From positions 1-33,963 of the IMG/VR virus record IMGVR_UViG_3300023107_000066: a stretch of DNA of 33,963 nt; one strand, 5' to 3'. The notes beneath the pieces are model-generated. The model made no database searches, was not told the origin of the DNA, and saw nothing but the letters and a program-made list of their open reading frames with translations. Of the stretch, positions 512 through 30,082 are shown piece after piece (the first letter of the stretch is position 1; each line of letters opens with the position of its first letter). The position numbers and the translations under genes are program-made. The stretch is from a virus (taxonomy: Duplodnaviria > Caudoviricetes).

Positions 512-1285
512 ATGCCCACGGGACAGGCAGACGCACCGAAACCAAAAAAGCTCACGGGCCTGCAGCAGCGGTTCGTAGAAGCCTACGCCCGCATCTGGAA
601 GGGTGCGCCGGCCGCCGTGCTGGCTGGCTACGCCGAGGGCAGCGCCAAGCAGACGGCCCGGAACCTGCTCCAGCTTGAGCACATCCAGGCGGCTATTGTC
701 GAGGAAGCCGCCCGGCTCGGTATGACGGTGGACGAGGCCACGGTGCGCATGTCAGAGTGGGGCCGCGTCACCGTGGACGATCTAATGACGCTGGGCGAGG
801 AAGAGTATACTACCTACGTCGATAAGCCCTTCCGGGAGGTTGTAGAGGAGTTTTACGAGAACATCGTTTTTGAGCAGGAACTCGCTATTCGTCAGGAAAT
901 CCTGTTCACGGACAAGAAGGAGCAGAAGCGGTTTCGCAATAAGCAGCAGGAGTTGCACCTGAAGCGTCTGCTCGAATACGAGCGGTTGAAGATGGAGCTG
1001 GAGAAGGAGCCCAATAAGGTTCGCCAGGTTCCAGGCCCCAAAGCAGTGCGGGAAGTAGTTCGGCTCGACTTGGTCAAAGTGTACAAGCACAAGGCGGGCC
1101 ACTTGATCAAAAAGGTTAAGGAGACTCGCTACGGGCTGGAAATTGAGACTCACGACGCCAAGGATGCTACCGATAAGATCCTGAAGCTACATGGTGCCTA
1201 CGCTCCGGAGAAGCACGACGTCACCACCAACGGCAAGGATTTGCCCGGTTCCAACATTATGATGCCCGACAATGGCCGCGACTGA
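512..1285 (+). CDS. terS: Terminase small subunit
   Basis: N-terminal LTGLQQRFVEAY...AAVLAGYAEGSAKQTARNLL is a Terminase_2-type HTH; C-terminal KILKLHGAYAPEKHDVTTNG tail. ATG 512 preferred over GTG 455, which lies inside the inverted repeat. Confidence 0.85.
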   Translation: MPTGQADAPKPKKLTGLQQRFVEAYARIWKGAPAAVLAGYAEGSAKQTARNLLQLEHIQAAIVEEAARLGMTVDEATVRMSEWGRVTVDDLMTLGEEEYTTYVDKPFREVVEEFYENIVFEQELAIRQEILFTDKKEQKRFRNKQQELHLKRLLEYERLKMELEKEPNKVRQVPGPKAVREVVRLDLVKVYKHKAGHLIKKVKETRYGLEIETHDAKDATDKILKLHGAYAPEKHDVTTNGKDLPGSNIMMPDNGRD

Positions 1286-4546: not shown

Positions 4547-5167
4547 ATGGCCACTTCCTGCACTCGCCCCGATTCTTTGACGGCCATTGCGGCGCAGCTT
4601 TGCGCCGTGAACTTTAAGCAGTTCCAGCGCCTGCTGCTCCAGCGCTCTCAGAAGGTGGCCAGCTTCGCCACCGAGGCAGAAATGAAGACGCTGGCCGCCT
4701 GGACTACCCTGCTCGAAGCGGATGACAACACGAAGGTGATTGTCACGCCCTTCTTCCAGAACATGGTGATTCCGTCCTCGGAGGCGCAGTTCGGCGGTGA
4801 GAACAGCAACGAAACGCTCAACGGCGTAGGTACCTTCCTGGGCTTCAACCCCGTGAAGCCTACTGGTAACTTCGTTGGCCTGGATTCGGCCCTGTACGAG
4901 GTCCTGGACGCGCTGACGCCCGAATCGCTGGCCGAGCTCGGCGTGTCGCGCCTGACGTCCTACCTCGTGACGGCTGATGGCGAAATCGTGCACAAAGCCC
5001 TGAAAGGCATCCCCGTCTTCAACTGGGTCGTGGGTAGCCCCGGCACCCAGGGCTTCAAGTCGCAGACGCTGTTCCCCTTCTCCTTCTCAATGACGGCCGA
5101 CTGGTTCAAGGGCGTGAACGTGCTCAAGCCGACGTTCAACCCGCTCACCGACCTGGACGCTGAGTAA
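4547..5167 (+). CDS. Putative major tail (tube) protein or other abundant virion protein
   Basis: 206 aa, beta-rich, strong codon bias like the capsid gene; no other tube candidate despite a tape measure and chaperone. Assigned by elimination. Confidence 0.5.
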   Translation: MATSCTRPDSLTAIAAQLCAVNFKQFQRLLLQRSQKVASFATEAEMKTLAAWTTLLEADDNTKVIVTPFFQNMVIPSSEAQFGGENSNETLNGVGTFLGFNPVKPTGNFVGLDSALYEVLDALTPESLAELGVSRLTSYLVTADGEIVHKALKGIPVFNWVVGSPGTQGFKSQTLFPFSFSMTADWFKGVNVLKPTFNPLTDLDAE

Positions 5168-5412
5168 TGGCCCGGCCAACAGCCGGGGTACCGGAGCCGG
5201 TCTGGCTCCGCGCCCCAGACCTTGGCGACATCCCAAGGGCTTTCGACCCGGCCCACGCGGCCCGGATCCTGGCCCGGCAGGAACGCACCAAGCTTCACCT
5301 CTGGCTGCTGGCGGAAGCCCCAGCCTCTCCCCCCTCCCCCGATTCTACGGCTCCGCCGCAAGATGATCCTAAGCCCCGAAGACGTACGCGTACTCCTCGA
5401 AAACCCCGCTAA
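5167..5412 (+). CDS. Hypothetical protein
   Basis: TAATG-coupled to the upstream gene; Pro/Arg-rich tail overlaps the portal start. Confidence 0.55.
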   Translation: MARPTAGVPEPVWLRAPDLGDIPRAFDPAHAARILARQERTKLHLWLLAEAPASPPSPDSTAPPQDDPKPRRRTRTPRKPR

Positions 5413-7156
5413 CAACGGGGCTATTGGTGACTGCCTACGCCACGAGCAGCGGCTGCGGCTTCATGCCATTCCCCACGTAGACCCGATGCGCCGCCCCGAA
5501 GGCTGGCGCTACCTGCGTGATTGGGCTAAGGAGATGCTGCCCGAAAGCGAGTTTGTGAAGTGGGAGCAGTGCGTGCCAGCTCCGCTGCCTACCACCGATA
5601 TCATTGAGGACATCTTCACGGGCCTCAAGCGCGTGTTCGAAGCTCAAGACGGTCTGGTGCAGGTCGAGCTGGCAACGCCCGAGTTGGAAACAGACTTCGA
5701 AACCTACCGCACCTCCCTGAAGGAGTCGGACTTCTGGACCACCCGGGCGTTCAAGGCCCTGCGTGGCCGGCCGCACTCGCTGCTGGTAGTCGACATGGCT
5801 GCTGAGCAGCGCACGCCGCGGCCAGAGCCCTACGTGTTCCTGCTGCATCTGGAGCAGCTCTGGGACGTGGCCCTGAAGGAAGACGGCACCTGCGAGTACG
5901 TGCTCTTCACGCTGTCCGAGCGCAAGGATGAGCAGGGCAACGTGATTGAGCGCATGGCCTGCTACGATGATGCCGCCTACGCCATCCTGGAAAAGCCCGT
6001 CGGTGAGCAGGTCTGGGTGGAGGTGCTACGCAATACCCACATTCTGGGCTACTGCCCGGCCCGCGTGCTCTGGTCGGACCCACTCGACCAGCCTACCGAC
6101 CTGCCGCGGCTGGCACCACTGACGGCCGTGCTGGGCAACCTGGACCGCTACATCTGGTGGGACGGGGCCACCGAGTACTTCCGTCAGTACGGCACCTTCC
6201 CCGTGATGTGGAGCTTTGAGGAGCAGTGCTCCTTCCAAGGCGAAGGCGGCAGCCCCTGCCAAAGCGGCATCGTGCAATACGTCAGGAGCTACCAGAAGCT
6301 CGATAACGGCGAAGAGGTGCCGGTGTACGGGGAGAAGCCTTGCCCTGCCTGCGCCCTGCGCAAGCTCATCGGCCCGGGCGTGCACGTCAAAGTGCCCGCC
6401 CCGTCGAAGGAAATGCCCGACACCCGGGTGCCCGTCGGCTTCGAGGGTGCCGGCGTGGAAATCCTGGGCTACCTAGACGAGGTGCTCAAAGGCCGGCGCG
6501 AAGCGCTGCTGCGCTCGGTGCTCGGCGGTGGTGGGGAGCCCAGCAACGACCAGGCGAAGAATACCAAGCAGGTGCAGGGTGGCTTCGAAATCAAACAGGA
6601 CGTGCTGGTTGAGTTCAAAAAGCCTCTGGAAGAGGCCCGCGCTTGGACCCTGCGCACCATCGGCACGCTTCGCTATGGAGCCCTGATGCGGGGCGTGTTC
6701 GTCACCTACGGCGAGCGGTTCTACCTCAAAACGCCCGAACAGCTGGCCAAGGAGGAAGAAGAAGCCCGCAAGGCCGGCCGGCCCGTCTACGAGCTTAGCC
6801 AGGCCCGCGACTTCCGCTACCAGACCCAGTTTCGCAACAACCCCGCGCAGCTGGACCGCATGCGCATCCTCTCCGATCTGGAGCCTTATCCGGAATACTC
6901 GCTGGAGCAGATCCTGACGATGATTGCCGGGGCCATGACCGGGACTAATCCGTTCGTGCTGGCCCTCTTCGACCGGGCCATGCTACAGCTAAAGGCTGAT
7001 TTCGGCCGCTACCTCACCCGCTTCGAATCCGAGCATATGGACGTGCGGCGTTTCGCTTCTCAGCAGCCCTACTACATCAAGCTCGCCACCATCACTCAAA
7101 TCCTTTTGTCTTATGTCAACAGCAACCAAAACGGCCCTAACGGCCAAAACGGCTAA
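5363..7156 (+). CDS. Portal protein with a Cys4 insertion
   Basis: About 597 aa, helical, between terL and scaffold/capsid; NTHILGYCPARVLW resembles the portal HxxGxxP motif; ATG 5363 (MILSPEDV). Confidence 0.75.
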   Translation: MILSPEDVRVLLENPANNGAIGDCLRHEQRLRLHAIPHVDPMRRPEGWRYLRDWAKEMLPESEFVKWEQCVPAPLPTTDIIEDIFTGLKRVFEAQDGLVQVELATPELETDFETYRTSLKESDFWTTRAFKALRGRPHSLLVVDMAAEQRTPRPEPYVFLLHLEQLWDVALKEDGTCEYVLFTLSERKDEQGNVIERMACYDDAAYAILEKPVGEQVWVEVLRNTHILGYCPARVLWSDPLDQPTDLPRLAPLTAVLGNLDRYIWWDGATEYFRQYGTFPVMWSFEEQCSFQGEGGSPCQSGIVQYVRSYQKLDNGEEVPVYGEKPCPACALRKLIGPGVHVKVPAPSKEMPDTRVPVGFEGAGVEILGYLDEVLKGRREALLRSVLGGGGEPSNDQAKNTKQVQGGFEIKQDVLVEFKKPLEEARAWTLRTIGTLRYGALMRGVFVTYGERFYLKTPEQLAKEEEEARKAGRPVYELSQARDFRYQTQFRNNPAQLDRMRILSDLEPYPEYSLEQILTMIAGAMTGTNPFVLALFDRAMLQLKADFGRYLTRFESEHMDVRRFASQQPYYIKLATITQILLSYVNSNQNGPNGQNG

Positions 7157-7820
7157 GCCCAAGCTCGACCTGAGAGAACTGCAGCAGAAGCAGCTCAATG
7201 GCGAGGAAATCGAGATGACCGCCGGCAATGCCGACGACGCGGGCGACTACGAGTTTCCCAGCCACGAGTCGGACCGCGTGCACGTCGAGCTCACCAAGAA
7301 GGTCAACGACCCGATTCTGAAGCAGTACACCGACGAGGTGACTCGGAAGAAGTTCGTGCCGGCGCAGTTCGACCGCATGGTGAGAAGCGGCTACTTCGAC
7401 ACCACCACCTACGACAAGGTTCGGGTGCTGCACGATCCGCGCTACACCAAGTCGGCCCCTGCCTCGACTGCGCCCACTGGTGCCCGCCCCTGGGAGCCGG
7501 CAGAGGGCCTGCCTACGCTGCAAGATGCCCAGATGCGCTATAAAGAGCTGTATGGCCAGAATGCCCCGGCTGTCTCCTACGAGTCGCTGCTGGAGTTCAT
7601 TCAGGCCAAAGAGCTGGAAGTTGGCCAGTACACGGACGAACCCAACGGCGGCACGGCCCCCGGCCCCCGCAAAGCCATCCGTAGCACCGTGGATGCGCAG
7701 GAGCGCTACAAGGAGCTGTTTGGCGAGGACGCCCCCGCCGACAAGAGTTTCACCGAGCTGAAGGTCCTCATCGAAAATGAGGAGAATCGGCTGGATGAGG
7801 AGGGTGGAGCGACCAGATAG
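7113..7820 (+). CDS. Hypothetical head-module protein with two C-terminal helical repeats
   Basis: DAQMRYKELYGQNAPAVSYESLLEFI and DAQERYKELFGEDAPADKSFTELKVLI, 56 codons apart. Confidence 0.75.
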   Translation: MSTATKTALTAKTAKPKLDLRELQQKQLNGEEIEMTAGNADDAGDYEFPSHESDRVHVELTKKVNDPILKQYTDEVTRKKFVPAQFDRMVRSGYFDTTTYDKVRVLHDPRYTKSAPASTAPTGARPWEPAEGLPTLQDAQMRYKELYGQNAPAVSYESLLEFIQAKELEVGQYTDEPNGGTAPGPRKAIRSTVDAQERYKELFGEDAPADKSFTELKVLIENEENRLDEEGGATR

Positions 7821-7828
7821 GAAGCTCC

Positions 7829-7880
7829 AGGGCCGGTTCCACGCGGGTGGGACTAACCGGAGCCGGCCCTTTCCTTTCCC
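7829..7880 (+). terminator. GC-rich hairpin with pyrimidine tail (terminator or regulatory); loop contains GTGGGAC
   Basis: AGGGCCGGTTCC (7829-7840) pairs with GGAGCCGGCCCT (7859-7870), followed by TTCCTTTCCC. Confidence 0.5.
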
Positions 7881-7922
7881 TCCCGCACAGCAGTTGTTTT
7901 CACCGCCATTTTCCCCACTCGC

Positions 7923-8339
7923 ATGGCCATCCCAATCAAATTCCCCGAAGCCAACGCCGTCTTAGAAAAGCCGGCCAACATGACTGAGGAAGAGTGCCAC
8001 TCCCTTCCCATCCTGCGCAAAGACGGCCAGTGCATCAGCATGTGGAAGCTCTCGCCGGAAGAGTTAGTAAGCGTCAACATCACCCACTGCGTCTGTGTAG
8101 GCGTGCTTTCGGGTCATACCCAGCCACCTATCTGGGTGGAAGGTGCCGCCCCAGCTGAAGGTGTAGAAATCGACGGGGGCCGCATGCTCCAGATGAACGA
8201 AACCCATGAGCTCGGTACCCTGGGCATTAAAATCTACCTCTTCTCTGATGAGGCCGATGAAATTGAGCAGGCCCGCGCATCGGAACTGCGCAAACGCATT
8301 TCAGCAGTCATTCAGGAATACCAGGCTTCTGGTTTTTAA
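7923..8339 (+). CDS. Hypothetical protein
   Basis: 138 aa; ANAVLEKP...ECHSLP...CISMWKLSPEE...QPP is a phage-type small protein pattern; flanked by a direct repeat. Confidence 0.7.
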   Translation: MAIPIKFPEANAVLEKPANMTEEECHSLPILRKDGQCISMWKLSPEELVSVNITHCVCVGVLSGHTQPPIWVEGAAPAEGVEIDGGRMLQMNETHELGTLGIKIYLFSDEADEIEQARASELRKRISAVIQEYQASGF

Positions 8340-8377
8340 GTCAATAAGTCAATCATTTTCCCACTCGCAACCACCCG

Positions 8378-8394
8378 ACTGAACGGGACTCAGT
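8378..8394 (+). promoter_or_regulatory. ACGGGAC-loop hairpin abutting the scaffold start codon
   Basis: ACTGA-ACGGGAC-TCAGT followed by ATG 8395. Confidence 0.55.
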
Positions 8395-9300
8395 ATGGCC
8401 ATCACCGACAACACTTTTGCCCCCGAAGAGCTAACCGCCGCTATTGCCGCGAATCCAACTCTGATCCCTCACCTGGTTGGCGCCGTGAAAAGCTCCGGCT
8501 ACATCGCCCGTACGGCCGATGAAGAAAATAAATTCATCGGCGATAAGACCAAGGAGTTATATGATGGCCTGGACAAGGACCTCTTTGATACCTCGGGCGT
8601 CGCCAAGAATCCGACGGAAAAGACCTACGACTACGCTAAGCGGGTAGTAGGAGGCCTTAAAACCAGCCTCACGGAAGCCACCACGCCGCTACAGACCAAG
8701 ATTGCCGAGCTGGAAAAGCAGATCAAGGACGGCAACGGCAACGAAACCTTGAAAGCACAGCTGGAGCAGCTGCAGGAAAAGGAGAAGAAGTATCAGGAGG
8801 ACATCACCGACCGCGACACGAAGCTTTTCCAGAAGGATGTCATGCTTGACATCCGCGACGGCCTGCGGGCTGTCGAACTGAATAAGACGCTGCCGGAGTC
8901 GCTGCGGAAGCTCGCCGTCAATGACGCCACCAATGCTATCGTGGGCATGGCGAAGCTCCAAAAGAACGCTGACGGGACGGAGTCGGTGGTATACATCCGC
9001 GACAATAAAGTAGCGCTCAACAAGGATGGTCAGCCGGCTACGGCTGCCGACCTGTTGCAGGAGTTGCTGAAAGATGTGATTGAAGCTGGCCAGCTTGGCG
9101 CTGGTGGTGGTGCGGGTGCTGGTGGCACTGGTGGCGCCAGTGGTGGTGGCCGTAAGGCTGTGCCCACCTCGCTGCCTGCCACGGTGAAAACCCAGGGCCA
9201 ACTACACGACTACCTGAAGGAGTACGGGCTTATCGCTGACACCGAGGAGTACGACAAAGCCTGGGACGCCCTGAAAGGCGACACCCTCTCGCTTCGCTAA
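8395..9300 (+). CDS. Capsid scaffolding protein
   Basis: Coiled coil, Gly-rich linker, short C-terminal domain; immediately upstream of the capsid gene. Confidence 0.75.
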   Translation: MAITDNTFAPEELTAAIAANPTLIPHLVGAVKSSGYIARTADEENKFIGDKTKELYDGLDKDLFDTSGVAKNPTEKTYDYAKRVVGGLKTSLTEATTPLQTKIAELEKQIKDGNGNETLKAQLEQLQEKEKKYQEDITDRDTKLFQKDVMLDIRDGLRAVELNKTLPESLRKLAVNDATNAIVGMAKLQKNADGTESVVYIRDNKVALNKDGQPATAADLLQELLKDVIEAGQLGAGGGAGAGGTGGASGGGRKAVPTSLPATVKTQGQLHDYLKEYGLIADTEEYDKAWDALKGDTLSLR

Positions 9301-9304
9301 CTAC

Positions 9305-9387
9305 CAGGGCCGGCCGCACGGGACGCTGGCCGGCCCTGCTTACCGCTTACCGCTTACCTACTGCGTGATTACGGGACGGCCGCGCAG
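9305..9387 (+). promoter_or_regulatory. Two ACGGGAC-loop hairpins in the major capsid leader
   Basis: CAGGGCCGGCCGC-ACGGGAC-GC(T)GGCCGGCCCTG (9305-9338) and CTGCGTGATT-ACGGGAC-GGCCGCGCAG (9361-9387, G-U pairs and one mismatch). Confidence 0.6.
9338..9358 (+). repeat. Tandem repeat (GCTTACC)x3
   Basis: GCTTACCGCTTACCGCTTACC between the two hairpins. Confidence 0.9.
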
Positions 9388-9425: not shown

Positions 9426-10508
9426 ATGGCTTCCATCACCCAAACCCTCAAACAGGCCCTCCGCACCCGTTATCGTCGTGGTACTGGCGGCCTGGACAAC
9501 CTGGAACTGCGCGGCTCTGTCTACGGCGCCTACAACCTCTACAAGAAGCAGACGGCTTCGCCCACGGGCATTGTGACGCCGGAGCTTAAAGCTGCTCTGG
9601 AGCAGAGCTTCGGCAACACCGTGCAGGTGCCCGTCATCGACTGGATGGCGCCCACCATCGGCAACGTGCGTACCTGCGCCGTGCAGGTGGGCGGCCTCGT
9701 CTCCAAGCTGGTGGAGTTCACGGCCGTGACGCTGACCTTCGGTTTTCCGATGATCCGCTCGCAGTTCATTAACAACAACATCAGCGAAGTAGACTTCTTC
9801 TACCGGATGTTCGAAGCGCGCCGGCTGGCCGCTATGGAACTGCTCGACACCTGGTCGGTGGACCACCTGGAGGATAATAAGAACCAGTATTTCCCTGCCG
9901 AAATCCTGCAATACTACCCCGAGGCCAACGACGCGCTGCAGGTACCCGGCGACAAGGAGGAGCGCATTGAGTTCTACAACCAGATCCGCTCGATCCTGAG
10001 CTCGATGGACTTCACGGGCAACCCCGACGTGGTGACCAACCCGATGGCCATGGGCGACATCCGCACCGTGCTGGGTGCCGGTACCACTGACGCCGGTAAC
10101 CTGGCCTACGTGTTGGATTCGGTGGGCAGCTTCTTCGAGTCCAACCGCGTGATTGCCGGCACCGGCAACCGCGCCGTGCTCTACCTGGTGGGCGCCAACT
10201 CCGTGGGCATGGTGACCCGCATCGACCCGGACTGCGAGCGTGGCGAAACCCACGGCGGCCCCGAAAACCCCGTACGGGAGTGGACGAAACAGGAGGTGCC
10301 CGGCATCGGCACGATGGGCCTGTACTACCGCGCGGATTGCGCCGATCAGTCGGCTACGCTAGCCGCCCAGAACCTGCAGGGTCTGACCCGCACCTCGGTG
10401 GAGTCCTTCGAGTGGAGCATGGATGTCTTCTTCATCAAGCTCTACAACTCGGCCAGCGGTACCCGCTACTTCCCCATCATCAAGGTGGAGCAGAAAACGG
10501 CCGCCTAA
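9426..10508 (+). CDS. Major capsid protein
   Basis: 360 aa after the scaffold, GNTVQVPVI E-loop-like motif, strong codon bias, followed by a terminator. Confidence 0.8.
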   Translation: MASITQTLKQALRTRYRRGTGGLDNLELRGSVYGAYNLYKKQTASPTGIVTPELKAALEQSFGNTVQVPVIDWMAPTIGNVRTCAVQVGGLVSKLVEFTAVTLTFGFPMIRSQFINNNISEVDFFYRMFEARRLAAMELLDTWSVDHLEDNKNQYFPAEILQYYPEANDALQVPGDKEERIEFYNQIRSILSSMDFTGNPDVVTNPMAMGDIRTVLGAGTTDAGNLAYVLDSVGSFFESNRVIAGTGNRAVLYLVGANSVGMVTRIDPDCERGETHGGPENPVREWTKQEVPGIGTMGLYYRADCADQSATLAAQNLQGLTRTSVESFEWSMDVFFIKLYNSASGTRYFPIIKVEQKTAA

Positions 10509-14903: not shown

Positions 14904-17900
14904 CTACCCGTTGCGGCGGTAGTAGGAGTTGGTGTGCTTGGTGATGGTGCCGCCCTGCTTCGTGTAGAGTCGCAGGCCGTCTTCGGTGAGCCGCCACTCC
15001 GGCCGCTCGTGCAGGGCCTGGATGATGCGGTCCGCGTCGCGGCTGCTGGCCTGCGCCGCGGCGGCAGCTACGGCCGCCACCTCTGCCGAGGCGCCCCCAG
15101 ACCGCCCGCTCCGGATATCCGCCACCTGTCCCTGCATCGTGGTCAGGTAGCGACGCTGGATAAGCAGATCCTGTAGCGCCCGGTCGTTGCGCAGGATCTG
15201 CTCGGTGCGAAAGTTGGTGCGCACCTTGTCGCCGGCCTGCAGGTAGGTTATTGTCGGCTTCTCGACGAGCCGCATTCCGCCGGAGCGGCCCTCAATCAGC
15301 TCGCGGCCCTGCTCACCGACCATAGCCCATTCCGCCGGTCCGCCCTCCCGGCCCTTGAAATACTGCGGGATGGGTTTGGCGGCAATGACTGCCGCCTGGG
15401 CTACGCCCTGGGCAATCACCAGCGCCGAGAGGATGCCGGCGCTAATCCCAAAATCCGCGTAGCGCGTGCCGCCACCCGTGCTCAGCACCGAGGTCACGGC
15501 CATGGCCGTGTTGAGGGCCACGTTGAACAGGGCCGCCGTTTTGTCGGCTTTGGCCTGCTTCTGCCGCAGGGCCAGCTCGCGCTTGCGGTAGTTCTCCTCA
15601 ATCTGGGCTTTGAGCTCGGCATTGTCGCCGGCTACGAGCAGCTCCTGCTCCTTTTTGTGGGCCAAATCATCCAACTCCTGCTGCCGGCGACCCGCGCCGA
15701 TCTGGTAGAAGGCGTCAGCAATGGCCTGCGTATTCTGCAGGCCTTCGATGATGAGCGCGCCTTCCTCTTCCCGCAGCCGCTTCTTCTCTGCATTCTGGTT
15801 GCGCACCCGTTGCAGGGCCTCCTCGTCAGCCTGGCGCTGGGCCTGGGCGTCTTTCTGCAGGTTATCAACCCGGTGAGCGCCGTAGTCGTCATCAAGCTGC
15901 TTGAGCTGCTTGTAGTAGTCCTTTTCCGAAATCAGCCCGGCGGCTAACTTCTGCTCCAGGGCCAGCTGGTCCTGCACGTAGCGCTTCTGTAGCTCCGAAT
16001 TGGCCAGGTCAGAGTTGTTGGCCCGCGGCCGGGCCAAAATCTCGGCCTTCTGCTTTTCGAGCTCTTCCAAGATGAGCTTCTCCTGCAAGGCGTCCCCCTT
16101 GGCGGCCCGGATTTTACTCTGGGCTTCCAGCTCGGCAATTTCGATCCGCCGGGCGGCCGCATCGAGCAGGGCCTGCTGCCGCTCCTGCGCCGAGCGGTTT
16201 TCATCCTGGGCAATCGTCTCCAGCGCGTCGATTTCGCTGTTGATGGCCAGCTTGTCGATGGCCGTGAGCTGGTCGAGCAGAGTATTGTGCAGGGCCAGAA
16301 TCTGCTTATCGGTGCTGCGCTCGATGTCAAGCTTCTTAGCCGAAAACTGCTCGGTGAGCCGCACCCGCGCCACCTCCAGGGCCTGGGTACCGCCAACCTG
16401 GTTTTTGTAGGTCAGGGCCGCCTCGTGAATCAGTTCGTCCCGCTCCACCTCGACCAGCTTAATGCGGGCCTCTTTGCCTTTTTGCAAGGCGCGGGTGCGG
16501 ATTTCTTCGCTGTTGGCCACGTTGCCCGCCTGCCGGTCGTAGTCGGCAATGCTGGCTTCCAAGCGCTGTTTTCGCAGCGCGTTTTCCTCCTTGATGAGGT
16601 CGGCGACGGCCTGCTTTTTCTTTTTGTCGACCTCTACGCTGTTATCCTCCGCGTTGGTCGCGTCATCGGTGGCCTGCGCCAGCAGCGTGTAGGCGCCGGC
16701 GGCATCGTAGCCGAGCCGGCGCAGCTGGGCCAGCACCTTGTTGCGGGCGTCTTCGGCCCGGGCGGCCTTGTTGGCGGCCAGCTGCGAGTCGTTGGTGAGC
16801 TTGACGTACTCGGTGTAGGTAGCCATCGTCTTGGGGCTGATGGCGCCCTCCGAGCTGTCGTAGAGCTTCGGGGTGGCTTCGCGCTGCCGGATCTGCTGGG
16901 GCAGCACCTTCTCAAAATCGGCCGATTGCAGGCCCGTGGCGGCGCGCACGAGCTTTTCCCGCGCGGTGGCCTCTTCCTGGATAGCCGTGGCCGTGGCGCG
17001 GGACATGCTGGCTTCCTTGTCCAGATTCTGCAGGCGCTTAGCCAGGGCCGTGGCATCCTCCAGGTATTTGGCCCGGGCCTCCTTGGTGTTACGGGCCACC
17101 GCGGCCGTGTTCAGGTCGTACTGCCCCGTCTGCTGGTTGAGAATGACGGCCGTCTCGCCCAGCCGGTCCTTGAGCTGGAGCACGGTTTCGCGCAGCTGAT
17201 TCTGCTCGGCAATGCTGGGCTTGGTCACGGCGCTCAGGCGCGTGAAGCGGGCCAGCAGGCTGTCGGTGCCGTCAGCAAACTTGCGCTGGTTCAGGGCCGA
17301 ATCGGCCAGGCCCTTGCCGTAGTCATCGAGCTGCTTCTTCGCCAGGCCGAGCAGGCGGCCGTCGAACAGGGCCCCGAAGCCGTCCTTAAAATTCAACGAG
17401 GCCCGGGCGCTGTCGACCAACCACTTCAGCGAGGATTCGGCGGCGCCGCTGGTAAAGAACTCGCTGACATCCCGCTTCAGCTTCGCCCACGAGCCTGCTA
17501 GGTTATCGTTCTTGATCCGAGCTTCTTCCGTTACAGATGTTGCCAAAATCAGCTGCTCATTCGCCGTAGCCTGCCGCTCGGCAAACAGCTCCGTGTTTTT
17601 AGCCAGCGTGGTGATGGCATTCTTCGCCTCGCCACTCTGGAGCTTCAGCGTAGCTAAGAGAGCATTGAATTCGGTGGTCGTATGGCCACCGGCGTTCAGA
17701 CCTTTCAAGAACGCCTGGATGGCACCCTGGAAATCATTATTTACCAGATGCTTAAATTGCTTCAGGGTCAGGTTCGCGTCGCCAATCTTGGCAATGGCGA
17801 AGCTTTCCTTCGTTTTGGTGCTGAGCGTGCTGAACAGGCGGTTCAGAGATGTGCCAGATGTTTCAGCGTTGAAGCCTGTTTCCTGCAGCACAGCAGCGTA

Positions 17901-19385
17901 GGCAAACACATCTTTCAGTGCCAGGCGAGCATTAGATGCTGTTGCGCCCACGCGCAGAGCCACATCGGTTAGAAAGGTGGGGGTAGCAGCCCCGTCGGCG
18001 CTAATTTGATTGATAGCCGAACCGATGGCCAGCAGATTCTGGTTTTGGTCCTTGCCCAATGTGTTCTTAAACACAAAGCTGATCTTGCCGAGCGACGTAG
18101 CAATTTCCTCAGCGCCACCCTTAAAGTCATCTTCTAGGGCCTGCACGCTGATATCAATGGCTTTGGTAAACCCCTCAATATCCTTGCCTGCTACCCCCAG
18201 CTGCCCGCCCACCTGCGCAATGTCCAGCAGGCCGGATAGTGAGGTCCGGCTGTCTACCTTTTTCAAGCTCTCGGCCAGCTGGTCGGTAGCCTCGCGGGAG
18301 AGGTTGGTAGTTTTGCGCACGTCGGCGAGCTGGTCGGAATACTCGGCCACGCTTTCGAAGGTCTTCGCCACCGCCCCGGCCAGCGCTGTCACCCCCAGGT
18401 AAGCCCCCAGGAAGTTATTGGCCATGCCGGCCGCGCCGGCACCCAACGACTGCGACTCCTTGCCGCCCTTCTTCGCCGCGGCGCCGTAGTTATTCAGCTC
18501 CCCGGTGACCTTTTGCAGCTCGGATTCGGTCCGCTCGATTTCGGCGCGCAGCTTGCGGTGTTCGTCGGCGCTGAGGTGCGTGGCGTTGGCCTGCATCTTC
18601 AGGGCCTGCACTTCGCTGGTGAGGGCCACCTTCTGGCTGTTCAGGGCCCGCACGGCTTCCAGGATACCCTTGGCGTAGGAACCGACCTCCCGGAAGTTCT
18701 GATTCAGCTCCCGGTCGAAATCCTTTAGCTTCTGCGTGTTGTCCGAAAACTGCTGCTTGAGCTTCTTCGCTTCCGCGTTGGTGGCTTCGAAGCCGCCGGG
18801 CAGGGCGCGAATCTTCTCGCCCAACTGCTGCGTCTCAATCGTGAGCCGGTTGTAGGAGCCGGCGGCGGCCGTCAGCTCAGAATTGGCCCCACGTACAGCC
18901 TTGTTGAGCTGGTCCGTGTCGCGCTTATACTGCTGCACGGCCAGCGCGGCCTTGGTGATGCGGTCCGCATCCTTAGCCGTAAACGCCTCCTTAAGCTCGG
19001 CCTGCAGCTTTTTCAGCTCTGTGCTGGCGGCCTTGGTTGCGTCAGCTACCTGCCGGCGTACCTCCGCCTGCCCCTTCTGCGCATTTTTGTAGCTCTCCTG
19101 CTCCCGGGCCAGCTTGCCGATTTCGGTAGACAGGCCTGCCAGGCTCTGTCGCTCCTGCTCGTTGGCCACGTTGAGGCCCTTGACCTGCTCGGCCAGGGTT
19201 TTGTTGCTCTCGGCGATGCCAGCCAGGCCTGCAGCAATGCGCTGGCCGTCGGCGTCGAGCAGCTTGGACATGGCCTTGTAGCTGCGGTTGAGTGCGGCGA
19301 CGGACTTTTGATACTCGTCCAGTTCCTGCCGGCCGGGCCCCAGCTGGTCGAAAAGGTCTCTGTGGGAAATCGGGTTCTCTGCCAT
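14904..19385 (-). CDS. Tail tape measure protein
   Basis: 1493 aa Ala/Gln/Lys-rich helical protein; TP901-like core (LADVRKTTNLS...IAQVGGQLG...AETSGTSL); C-terminal YFKG...AMVGEQGRELI motif. Confidence 0.92.
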   Translation of the reverse strand: MAENPISHRDLFDQLGPGRQELDEYQKSVAALNRSYKAMSKLLDADGQRIAAGLAGIAESNKTLAEQVKGLNVANEQERQSLAGLSTEIGKLAREQESYKNAQKGQAEVRRQVADATKAASTELKKLQAELKEAFTAKDADRITKAALAVQQYKRDTDQLNKAVRGANSELTAAAGSYNRLTIETQQLGEKIRALPGGFEATNAEAKKLKQQFSDNTQKLKDFDRELNQNFREVGSYAKGILEAVRALNSQKVALTSEVQALKMQANATHLSADEHRKLRAEIERTESELQKVTGELNNYGAAAKKGGKESQSLGAGAAGMANNFLGAYLGVTALAGAVAKTFESVAEYSDQLADVRKTTNLSREATDQLAESLKKVDSRTSLSGLLDIAQVGGQLGVAGKDIEGFTKAIDISVQALEDDFKGGAEEIATSLGKISFVFKNTLGKDQNQNLLAIGSAINQISADGAATPTFLTDVALRVGATASNARLALKDVFAYAAVLQETGFNAETSGTSLNRLFSTLSTKTKESFAIAKIGDANLTLKQFKHLVNNDFQGAIQAFLKGLNAGGHTTTEFNALLATLKLQSGEAKNAITTLAKNTELFAERQATANEQLILATSVTEEARIKNDNLAGSWAKLKRDVSEFFTSGAAESSLKWLVDSARASLNFKDGFGALFDGRLLGLAKKQLDDYGKGLADSALNQRKFADGTDSLLARFTRLSAVTKPSIAEQNQLRETVLQLKDRLGETAVILNQQTGQYDLNTAAVARNTKEARAKYLEDATALAKRLQNLDKEASMSRATATAIQEEATAREKLVRAATGLQSADFEKVLPQQIRQREATPKLYDSSEGAISPKTMATYTEYVKLTNDSQLAANKAARAEDARNKVLAQLRRLGYDAAGAYTLLAQATDDATNAEDNSVEVDKKKKQAVADLIKEENALRKQRLEASIADYDRQAGNVANSEEIRTRALQKGKEARIKLVEVERDELIHEAALTYKNQVGGTQALEVARVRLTEQFSAKKLDIERSTDKQILALHNTLLDQLTAIDKLAINSEIDALETIAQDENRSAQERQQALLDAAARRIEIAELEAQSKIRAAKGDALQEKLILEELEKQKAEILARPRANNSDLANSELQKRYVQDQLALEQKLAAGLISEKDYYKQLKQLDDDYGAHRVDNLQKDAQAQRQADEEALQRVRNQNAEKKRLREEEGALIIEGLQNTQAIADAFYQIGAGRRQQELDDLAHKKEQELLVAGDNAELKAQIEENYRKRELALRQKQAKADKTAALFNVALNTAMAVTSVLSTGGGTRYADFGISAGILSALVIAQGVAQAAVIAAKPIPQYFKGREGGPAEWAMVGEQGRELIEGRSGGMRLVEKPTITYLQAGDKVRTNFRTEQILRNDRALQDLLIQRRYLTTMQGQVADIRSGRSGGASAEVAAVAAAAAQASSRDADRIIQALHERPEWRLTEDGLRLYTKQGGTITKHTNSYYRRNG

Positions 19386-29623: not shown

Positions 29624-30082
29624 ATGACCTTCACCATTCCCGCGCCGCCTCACTGGTGGCCCTACTTGGTTCTCTCCGCCGGCGCGTTGCTGCTGCTGAT
29701 CTGGCTGATCCGCGCCGGCACGCTTCGGCAGCTCGCCACGCTGTGGGTAAAATCCTTTGTGGAAAACGAGCGCTTCAGCCCGCGGCTGCTCACCATCTTC
29801 TTTTTCGTGCTGCTCACCGGCTACCTGGAATACCGGATTTTCCTGCTGGAGCGGGCTGAGGCGCAGATGCTGGTCTACGTGCAGGTGGTCTTTGCCAACC
29901 TGACGCTGGTAACGGCCCTGCTCGGAGCTGGCAAGCTGGCCGACACCTACAAGACGGTGCAGCTGGAGAAGAAGACGCCCGATACCCAGATAACGGCCAA
30001 AACAGCCGCCGTCAGTGGCCAGAACATATCCGTGGGCACCGATGCGACGGTGTCCGAAAACCCTGTAAACCAAGCTGAATAA
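29624..30082 (+). CDS. Putative holin (3 TM, hydrophilic C-tail)
   Basis: ATG 29624; three hydrophobic segments; TAATG-coupled to the endolysin. Confidence 0.6.
   Translation: MTFTIPAPPHWWPYLVLSAGALLLLIWLIRAGTLRQLATLWVKSFVENERFSPRLLTIFFFVLLTGYLEYRIFLLERAEAQMLVYVQVVFANLTLVTALLGAGKLADTYKTVQLEKKTPDTQITAKTAAVSGQNISVGTDATVSENPVNQAE

Follow-up and report, generated by a model that had tools for sequence, protein, structure and literature searches.

The scaffolding protein of phage P22 (gp8) combines a C-terminal helix-turn-helix with an N-terminal part which, in the accessible portions of the literature, is implicated in autoregulation. Free P22 scaffold reportedly represses via a structure at its own start. 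The accessible portions of the P22 autoregulation literature contain no molecular account of RNA recognition, and we know of no dsDNA phage besides P22 for which scaffold-to-coat matching has been described. Phage proteins doubling as mRNA-specific translational regulators are also represented by T4 gp32 with its autogenous operator and by the proteins acting on the MS2-type coat operators. GP20 is another phage scaffold protein. Eight structured RNAs located directly upstream of phage GP20 genes (GP20-a, GP20-b, and six csRNAs) were reported in PMC10690425, the accessible part of which proposes no reader for them.

Here we analyzed a 33,963-nt stretch of phage DNA (the window). Its preliminary description had pointed to hairpins sharing the loop ACGGGAC in the leaders of the scaffold and capsid genes and had named P22 scaffold autoregulation and CsrA-type GGA loops as precedents. 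The former turned out to be the right one: the gene presumed to be regulated encodes the scaffold, an RNA structure is present at the scaffold start codon, and this scaffold likewise ends in a helix-turn-helix. Unlike in P22, one loop occurs at four genes, the sign of control is predicted to depend on position, and a covariation between a protein residue and an RNA base is visible. On this analogy, the system likely works as P22 scaffold autoregulation does, extended to several genes. The search for gp8 homology yielded no PDB match for the scaffold by fold or profile (the C-terminal domain was not queried alone). T4 gp32 and the MS2-type coat proteins are alike in the regulatory second job, but the proteins and the RNA shapes differ, and the candidate reader here is a transient assembly chaperone. 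The RNAs preceding GP20 genes are structured, as the hairpins here are, but span 72–107 nt according to the part of the report available.

CsrA/RsmA operators, with their purine-rich loop on a variable stem near the starts and several copies per leader, look similar to the hairpins of this family; unlike in those operators, the invariant core here is G-N-G, often without GGA. Loops lacking GGA include ACGAGAC, ACGTGAC, ACGCGAC, AAGAGTA, and AAGGGTA. CsrA itself was rejected as the reader, PF02599 being detected in none of five prophage-bearing host genomes (controls were positive) and in none of the 33 window proteins scanned, and the precedent drawn from it was abandoned.

The motif matched no Rfam family, either in the window (best E 1.4, unrelated family) or in seven loci (0 matches). 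Six motif strings were not found in the searched files of PMC10690425, a study listing 8495 IMG/VR candidates, and the motif may still sit uninterpreted in its alignment archives. The literature covered, largely without subscription papers, showed no description of this motif and none of a scaffold that regulates genes besides its own; the accessible parts of PMC5737381 and PMC4347634 contained nothing further on the motif.

Late Genes and Hairpins of the Window

The late region of a temperate siphophage makes up the window; the phage is of Hymenobacter type, belongs to the B40-8-like family, and has genes for terS, terL, portal, capsid, tape measure, an endolysin-like protein, and integrase there. 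Its capsid protein shares 68–87% identity with Hymenobacter prophage proteins and 25–32% with the counterparts in B40-8-like lytic phages that infect Bacteroides, Parabacteroides, Flavobacterium, Croceibacter, and Elizabethkingia. The scaffold gene was assigned on the basis of its position before the capsid gene, the coiled coil and C-terminal helix-turn-helix of its product, Foldseek viral matches named scaffolding protein, and one homolog annotated as head scaffolding protein. The structure model (mean pLDDT 85) consists of an N-terminal helical hairpin, the coiled coil, a middle domain, a Gly linker, and the helix-turn-helix. The product of 7113–7820 has a conserved N-terminal domain and two short repeated helical units, and Pfam and PDB searches with it gave no match. 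The metagenome contig L021 (38,678 bases) encodes ten tested proteins identical to those of the window and is therefore not independent evidence. The features are collected in Table 1.

Table 1. Genes, hairpins, and candidate elements of the window.
Feature	Coordinates	Strand	Basis
Terminase small subunit gene (terS), putative target	512..1285	+	PF03592, phrog_51
terS hairpin TGCC[CACGGGACA]GGCA over codons 1–6; predicted repressive site	513..529	+	relatives
Tail tube gene (MP2 of B40-8)	4547..5167	+	L149 homolog matches PDB 9wwa 'tube protein', E 2e-118
Separate element: stem 7830–7840/7859–7869, loop 7843–7852 able to pair with 7877–7886	7830..7886	+	9 sequences of the window's clade
Scaffold-start hairpin ACTGA[ACGGGAC]TCAGT, abutting the scaffold ATG; predicted autorepression operator	8378..8394	+	conservation, covariation, position
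Head scaffolding protein gene	8395..9300	+	structure model, Foldseek, annotated homolog
Scaffold residues 51–90, proposed RNA-reading module; Asp62 codon 8578–8580	8545..8664	+	co-loss, residue–base covariation
Distal capsid-leader hairpin, just 3' of the scaffold stop; loop ACGGGAC	9305..9338	+	kept in 18/18 Hymenobacter-clade representatives
Proximal capsid-leader hairpin with its loop at −55; capsid site found across the family, here with an imperfect stem	9361..9387	+	relatives
Major capsid protein gene, putative target	9426..10508	+	homolog of MP1/major capsid protein of B40-8-like phages

All four loop hairpins were found where the preliminary description had placed them. Five copies of ACGGGAC occur in the window, which is not above chance (4.47 expected); all five lie on the + strand, four of them at or just before the starts of head genes. 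The fifth, at 8972 inside the scaffold gene, has no GGGAC counterpart in five Hymenobacter-type loci (L001–L005). When compared with shuffled sequences, only the distal capsid-leader hairpin folded better (z −3.57) and the other three hairpins were weak alone, the one adjacent to the capsid start having an A-C mismatch near its loop. The tube-gene leader of the window has no loop hairpin, though many relatives carry one. The reality of the motif is argued from conservation and covariation in relatives, and not from its count or folding in the window.

Several other features of the window were recorded. A hairpin with the loop GATGCGAC at 30033–30057, 40 nt upstream of the endolysin-like gene, is a possible further site. 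Unlike the rest of the structural genes, the tape-measure gene (14904–19385) is encoded by the minus strand, which may reflect an inversion or an assembly matter. Between the tube and portal genes there is a small basic ORF (5167–5412), overlapping the portal start and with a counterpart in 66 scanned loci. Upstream of terS, at 446–480, a perfect 16-bp inverted repeat is present; in relatives, similar repeats lie over a promoter-like element upstream of both terS and the tube gene, and represent a candidate DNA site for late-gene control. GGGAC, which we take to be a type IIS restriction site, is rare across the window (1–33963; 31 observed vs. 79 expected), possibly through restriction-site avoidance.

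Occurrence and Covariation of the Motif in Relatives

The locus set comprised 213 loci, 209 with scaffold and capsid, reduced to 64 representatives at 85% scaffold identity. The search rule, set after the loci had been seen, asked for a core R-H-G-N-G-D-H closed by a stem within −70 to +15 of an ATG. It matched at 47/60 scaffold, 38/56 capsid, 22/53 tail-tube, and 7/15 terS starts, compared with 96/1139 for other genes. The proposed tie to scaffold and capsid gained support from these counts, and by the same sequence comparison the tail tube and terS are further predicted targets. When the scaffold-start core was picked by sequence alone, 51/61 representatives had it, with one candidate each; it was absent in 10/61, including PD691P3 and BF486P3, in which the scaffold N-domain is intact.

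As judged from these alignments, the general form is a stem of 4–6 bp and a loop of 7–9 nt with a G-N-G core, ACGGGAC being one form of it. The claim of a conserved loop on variable stems was thus upheld by relatives and covariation as far as the architecture goes, but the invariant part is G-N-G and not ACGGGAC. Invariance of the two G's is by construction in the later counts, since both are part of the search rule; they had first been noticed unprompted, before the rule was set. The distal capsid-leader loop varies in relatives to ACGTGAC, ATGAGAC, and ACGCGAC, and both capsid-leader hairpins are present in 18/18 Hymenobacter-clade representatives.

The scaffold-site alignment (50 sequences, 39 distinct, G045 left out) had 82.5% of its cells paired, compared with 43.7% after shuffling and 33–44% when slid, with double changes at all six stem pairs. 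At the capsid site (49/53 rows; L181, L185, L232, and G045 left out), 78.5% were paired vs. 47.2%, a pairing favoured by the choice of the best stem among several cores in 9/53 rows. The loop conservation and covariation that the preliminary description had proposed to seek in relatives are therefore present at both sites. The terS copy, described as weak, proved real, occurring in 10/15 Hymenobacter-type genes with three complementary stems within the coding sequence (GCC/GGC, GGC/GCC, and GAG/CTC) and altering amino acids while the pairing persists. The assignment to the + strand RNA was also sustained, as coding-strand stems contain more G-U than A-C (34 vs. 17; p 0.024), and the window with eight prophage regions gave 29 plus-strand matches and one minus-strand match. 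Altogether, we consider it nearly certain that the motif is a real, uncatalogued cis-acting RNA element.

Genome searches at the order and phylum levels added few loci (7/401 and 3/401). Single extra loop hairpins were seen near the end of the TCUEAP2 record (L247:42495-42520), 22 nt upstream of a tail gene (tail-145 homolog) in C1_85S2P (L054), and 50 nt upstream of an 1102-aa gene in the G002 prophage. Seven Flavobacterium-type loci (L055, L160, L292, L293, L295, L297, and L300) have a scaffold hairpin with a wider loop, which pairs with the AUG, and an insertion of 4–5 residues in the loop of the scaffold module described below.

A Separate Structured Element Downstream of 7113–7820

The hairpin at 7829–7870 had been listed with the loop GTGGGAC as a related copy. 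It was rejected as such: its loop also takes the forms GTGGGAT and GTGGGGAAT, and in 9/9 relatives tested it pairs with sequence further downstream. This second helix has 9–14 pairs in all nine sequences of the window's clade, with at most 7/500 shuffles as good, and shows wobble and compensatory changes among them; the first helix is 100% paired, with double changes at two pairs. Such covariation makes 7830–7886, 3' of the 7113–7820 stop, a candidate H-type pseudoknot or two-state alternative-pairing element. Other clades have unrelated long hairpins at its position. As a guess, its role might be that of a nuclease or ribosome block.

Predicted Direction of Control

The scaffold stem overlaps the −14 to +10 region in 48/48 cases and the capsid and tube stems in 0/73, the latter hairpins lying 40–60 nt upstream of the start. 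In the Flavobacterium-phage group the scaffold stem pairs with the AUG itself. Structure within −20 to +20 lowers initiation in Flavobacterium, according to the accessible part of PMC6847099. Since the scaffold stem covers the initiation region and such a structure lowers initiation, repression is predicted for the scaffold gene, and likewise for terS.

According to the proposed mechanism, free scaffold, either not yet built into a procapsid or recycled once packaging is over, would attach to the G-N-G loop and so lock a stem that is weak by itself. Where the locked stem lies over the initiation region, as in the scaffold and terS genes, ribosomes would be kept from entering. In the capsid and tube leaders the hairpin stands outside this region, and translation would be left free or possibly raised. 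The net outcome would be a feedback setting the scaffold:capsid ratio.

Masking the proximal hairpin opened the capsid start by a median of 3.07 kcal/mol in 17 Hymenobacter-clade leaders, compared with 0.16 for shuffled letters; outside the Hymenobacter capsid leaders, start opening on masking failed the letter-shuffle control. Among 18 leaders 14 opened, and for the window's own capsid leader the effect was +0.59 kcal/mol, with no activation predicted. In 7/9 members of the sister clade, the 20 nt preceding the capsid AUG paired with the 5' arm and loop of the hairpin better than shuffles did, and L005 shows a compensatory change; direct hairpin–start pairing was found in 0/9 leaders of the window's clade, 2/33 other capsid leaders, and 4/31 tube leaders, counts that are not independent since the leaders are related. 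In this one Hymenobacter clade, locking of the hairpin would prevent the pairing of its 5' arm and loop near the capsid AUG and so free the start. Capsid activation is thus a possibility supported for one Hymenobacter clade only, and elsewhere scaffold binding may be neutral, message-stabilizing, or scaffold-titrating.

Every site has the same loop, and the opening of the capsid start on hairpin locking is confined to the Hymenobacter clade, as would be expected if the scaffold repressed all targets including capsid and tube, with the block spreading from the upstream hairpin over an unstructured leader as a general late-structural brake. We find this unlikely: capsid and tube stems never lie over the initiation region, hairpin locking removes the start-region helix in seven of nine members of one clade, and repression of the capsid at high free scaffold would presumably worsen the imbalance. 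We therefore prefer, as rather probable from the positions and pairing described, the reading in which the hairpins serve as operators on the mRNA and are recognized by the scaffold through its N-terminal helical hairpin, with scaffold and terS repressed and capsid and tube left free or raised. True capsid activation as a family-wide rule appears doubtful on the leader comparisons. Sequence, position, covariation, co-loss, and residue–base covariation were observed; that the scaffold physically binds the loops, and in which direction each gene is controlled, we infer.

The Scaffold N-Terminal Helical Hairpin as the Likely Reader

In the B40-8 clade (B40-8, B124-14, BK649P1, and 40–41 related loci), loop hairpins are missing from the scaffold, capsid, and tube starts alike. 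The capsid-leader stem stays and the loop drifts; the scaffold start is now a stop–start overlap. A quick tree nested the clade among loop-bearing gut phages. When 507 segments of 12 structural proteins were scanned, the four most decayed in this clade all fell in scaffold residues 46–90, a region in which the clade scored below all 56 loop-bearing scaffolds; the co-loss counts as one evolutionary event. Portal residues 171–229 had likewise diverged (z to −2.5). A terL N-terminal signal in the same scan came from 2/4 rows and was discounted, as it probably reflects a start or insertion artefact. Residue 62, 76, or 78 is also changed in L047, L072, and L073, which form a second group without the loops and are distant overall.

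Key residues of the module are Y/H56, D60, D62, G68, K71, E75, K76, Y78, Y80, K82, and R83. Asp62 follows the first loop base: among the representatives, it is kept in 49/50 with A only and replaced in 11/11 with G or C, two of these non-A cases (L159 and xL074) being probably spurious. Asp62 had been spotted by eye before the column scan, in which it ranked first among 2795 columns (p 3e-11 when kinship is ignored), with scaffold K82 next. On the tree, five independent pairs changed in the same way and none in the opposite (p 0.0625). The 302 loci comprised 213 with Asp and A, three with Asp and non-A, three with non-Asp and A, 24 with neither, and 59 without a call; the exceptions are the L170 lineage and three loci of one lineage with Asp and a non-A call. 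A pre-registered held-out sample had little power, as it brought one new lineage whose loops were outside the rule and gave no call. That Asp would accept a hydrogen bond from the N6 of adenine, and give way to Lys, Thr, Asn, or Ser for guanine, is plausible on chemical grounds.

The different sites of a single phage carry loops that resemble one another beyond chance, also outside Hymenobacter (1.27 vs. 1.82 differences, n = 26), and in L311 all three sites share a 6-nt form of the loop; when concerted change was tested on the tree for each loop column, none of the tests reached significance. Based on the co-loss, the Asp62 covariation, and the within-phage likeness of loops, residues 51–90 of the scaffold, its N-terminal helical hairpin, are the likely reader, and we consider it probable that the scaffold acts as reader with autorepression. 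Against this speak the portal divergence in the B40-8 clade, the 10/61 representatives lacking the scaffold-start core, some of them with an intact N-domain, and the scaffold N-domain itself, for which fold, profile, and Atlas searches gave no known RNA-binding fold or family.

It may be asked whether another structural protein (capsid, tube, portal, or the 7113–7820 product) reads the loop and the scaffold N-domain changed for an unrelated reason, e.g., portal contact. All four proteins are present in the loop-bearing phages, the portal divergence noted above falls in the B40-8 clade, and capsid column 242 came third in the covariation scan (p 9e-5). This reading is nevertheless improbable, since no segment of the 7113–7820, capsid, or tube proteins fell below z −1.5 in the loop-less clade and Asp62 was ahead of the best non-scaffold column by more than six orders of magnitude. 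The 7113–7820 protein, which the preliminary description had named as a candidate binder, was dropped: it has no PDB relative, the loop-less clade retains its domain, and the evidence favours the scaffold.

The loop might also be imagined to be read by the host, through ribosomal protein bS1, an RNase, or an RNA-binding protein, or the purines of the scaffold site might act as a Shine-Dalgarno-like enhancer. In many members AAGGG precedes the scaffold AUG at −8 to −13, a position at which the B40-8 clade has GGAG together with the stop–start overlap, and adenines at −12/−13 promote initiation in Flavobacterium, according to the available part of PMC6847099. A TAnnTTTG-type promoter precedes 16/26 tube hairpins, which places them near 5' ends. 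The same loop, however, occurs at −40 to −60 and within the terS coding sequence, its variants are phage-specific and follow a phage residue, CsrA was absent from all five hosts, and Bacteroidia ribosomes do not recognize Shine-Dalgarno sequences as far as the accessible literature goes, so we regard this explanation as very unlikely. DNA- or transcription-level signals (an operator, a cruciform, or a nut-like antitermination site) are hardly credible: some hairpins do lie just 3' of promoter-like elements and short inverted repeats can serve as DNA sites, but the pairing is kept while the stem sequence is free, the distance to the AUG is fixed, G-U exceeds A-C on the coding strand, and the terS copy keeps its pairing despite amino-acid changes.

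Significance

The most complete reading is that the scaffold of this phage family would be a regulator that binds RNA in a sequence-specific manner through a helical-hairpin module of an undescribed kind, repressing scaffold and terminase, switching on capsid (and tube) via protein-driven re-pairing, and reading the first loop adenine through Asp62. Taken as a whole, and resting on comparative sequence analysis, it is tentative, and we would sooner expect some part of it to fail. The system lends itself to tests in cultured Bacteroides phages, with a target of 17 nt, a candidate reader of 40 residues, a natural loss clade (B40-8 and B124-14), and a predicted residue–base contact. Combining co-loss with residue–base covariation would offer a method for unread hairpins in other phage families. 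If the proposal is true, a reader would be named for the hairpins of the scaffold and capsid leaders, and the Bacteroidota, whose ribosomes ignore Shine-Dalgarno signals, would possess a compact protein–RNA switch.
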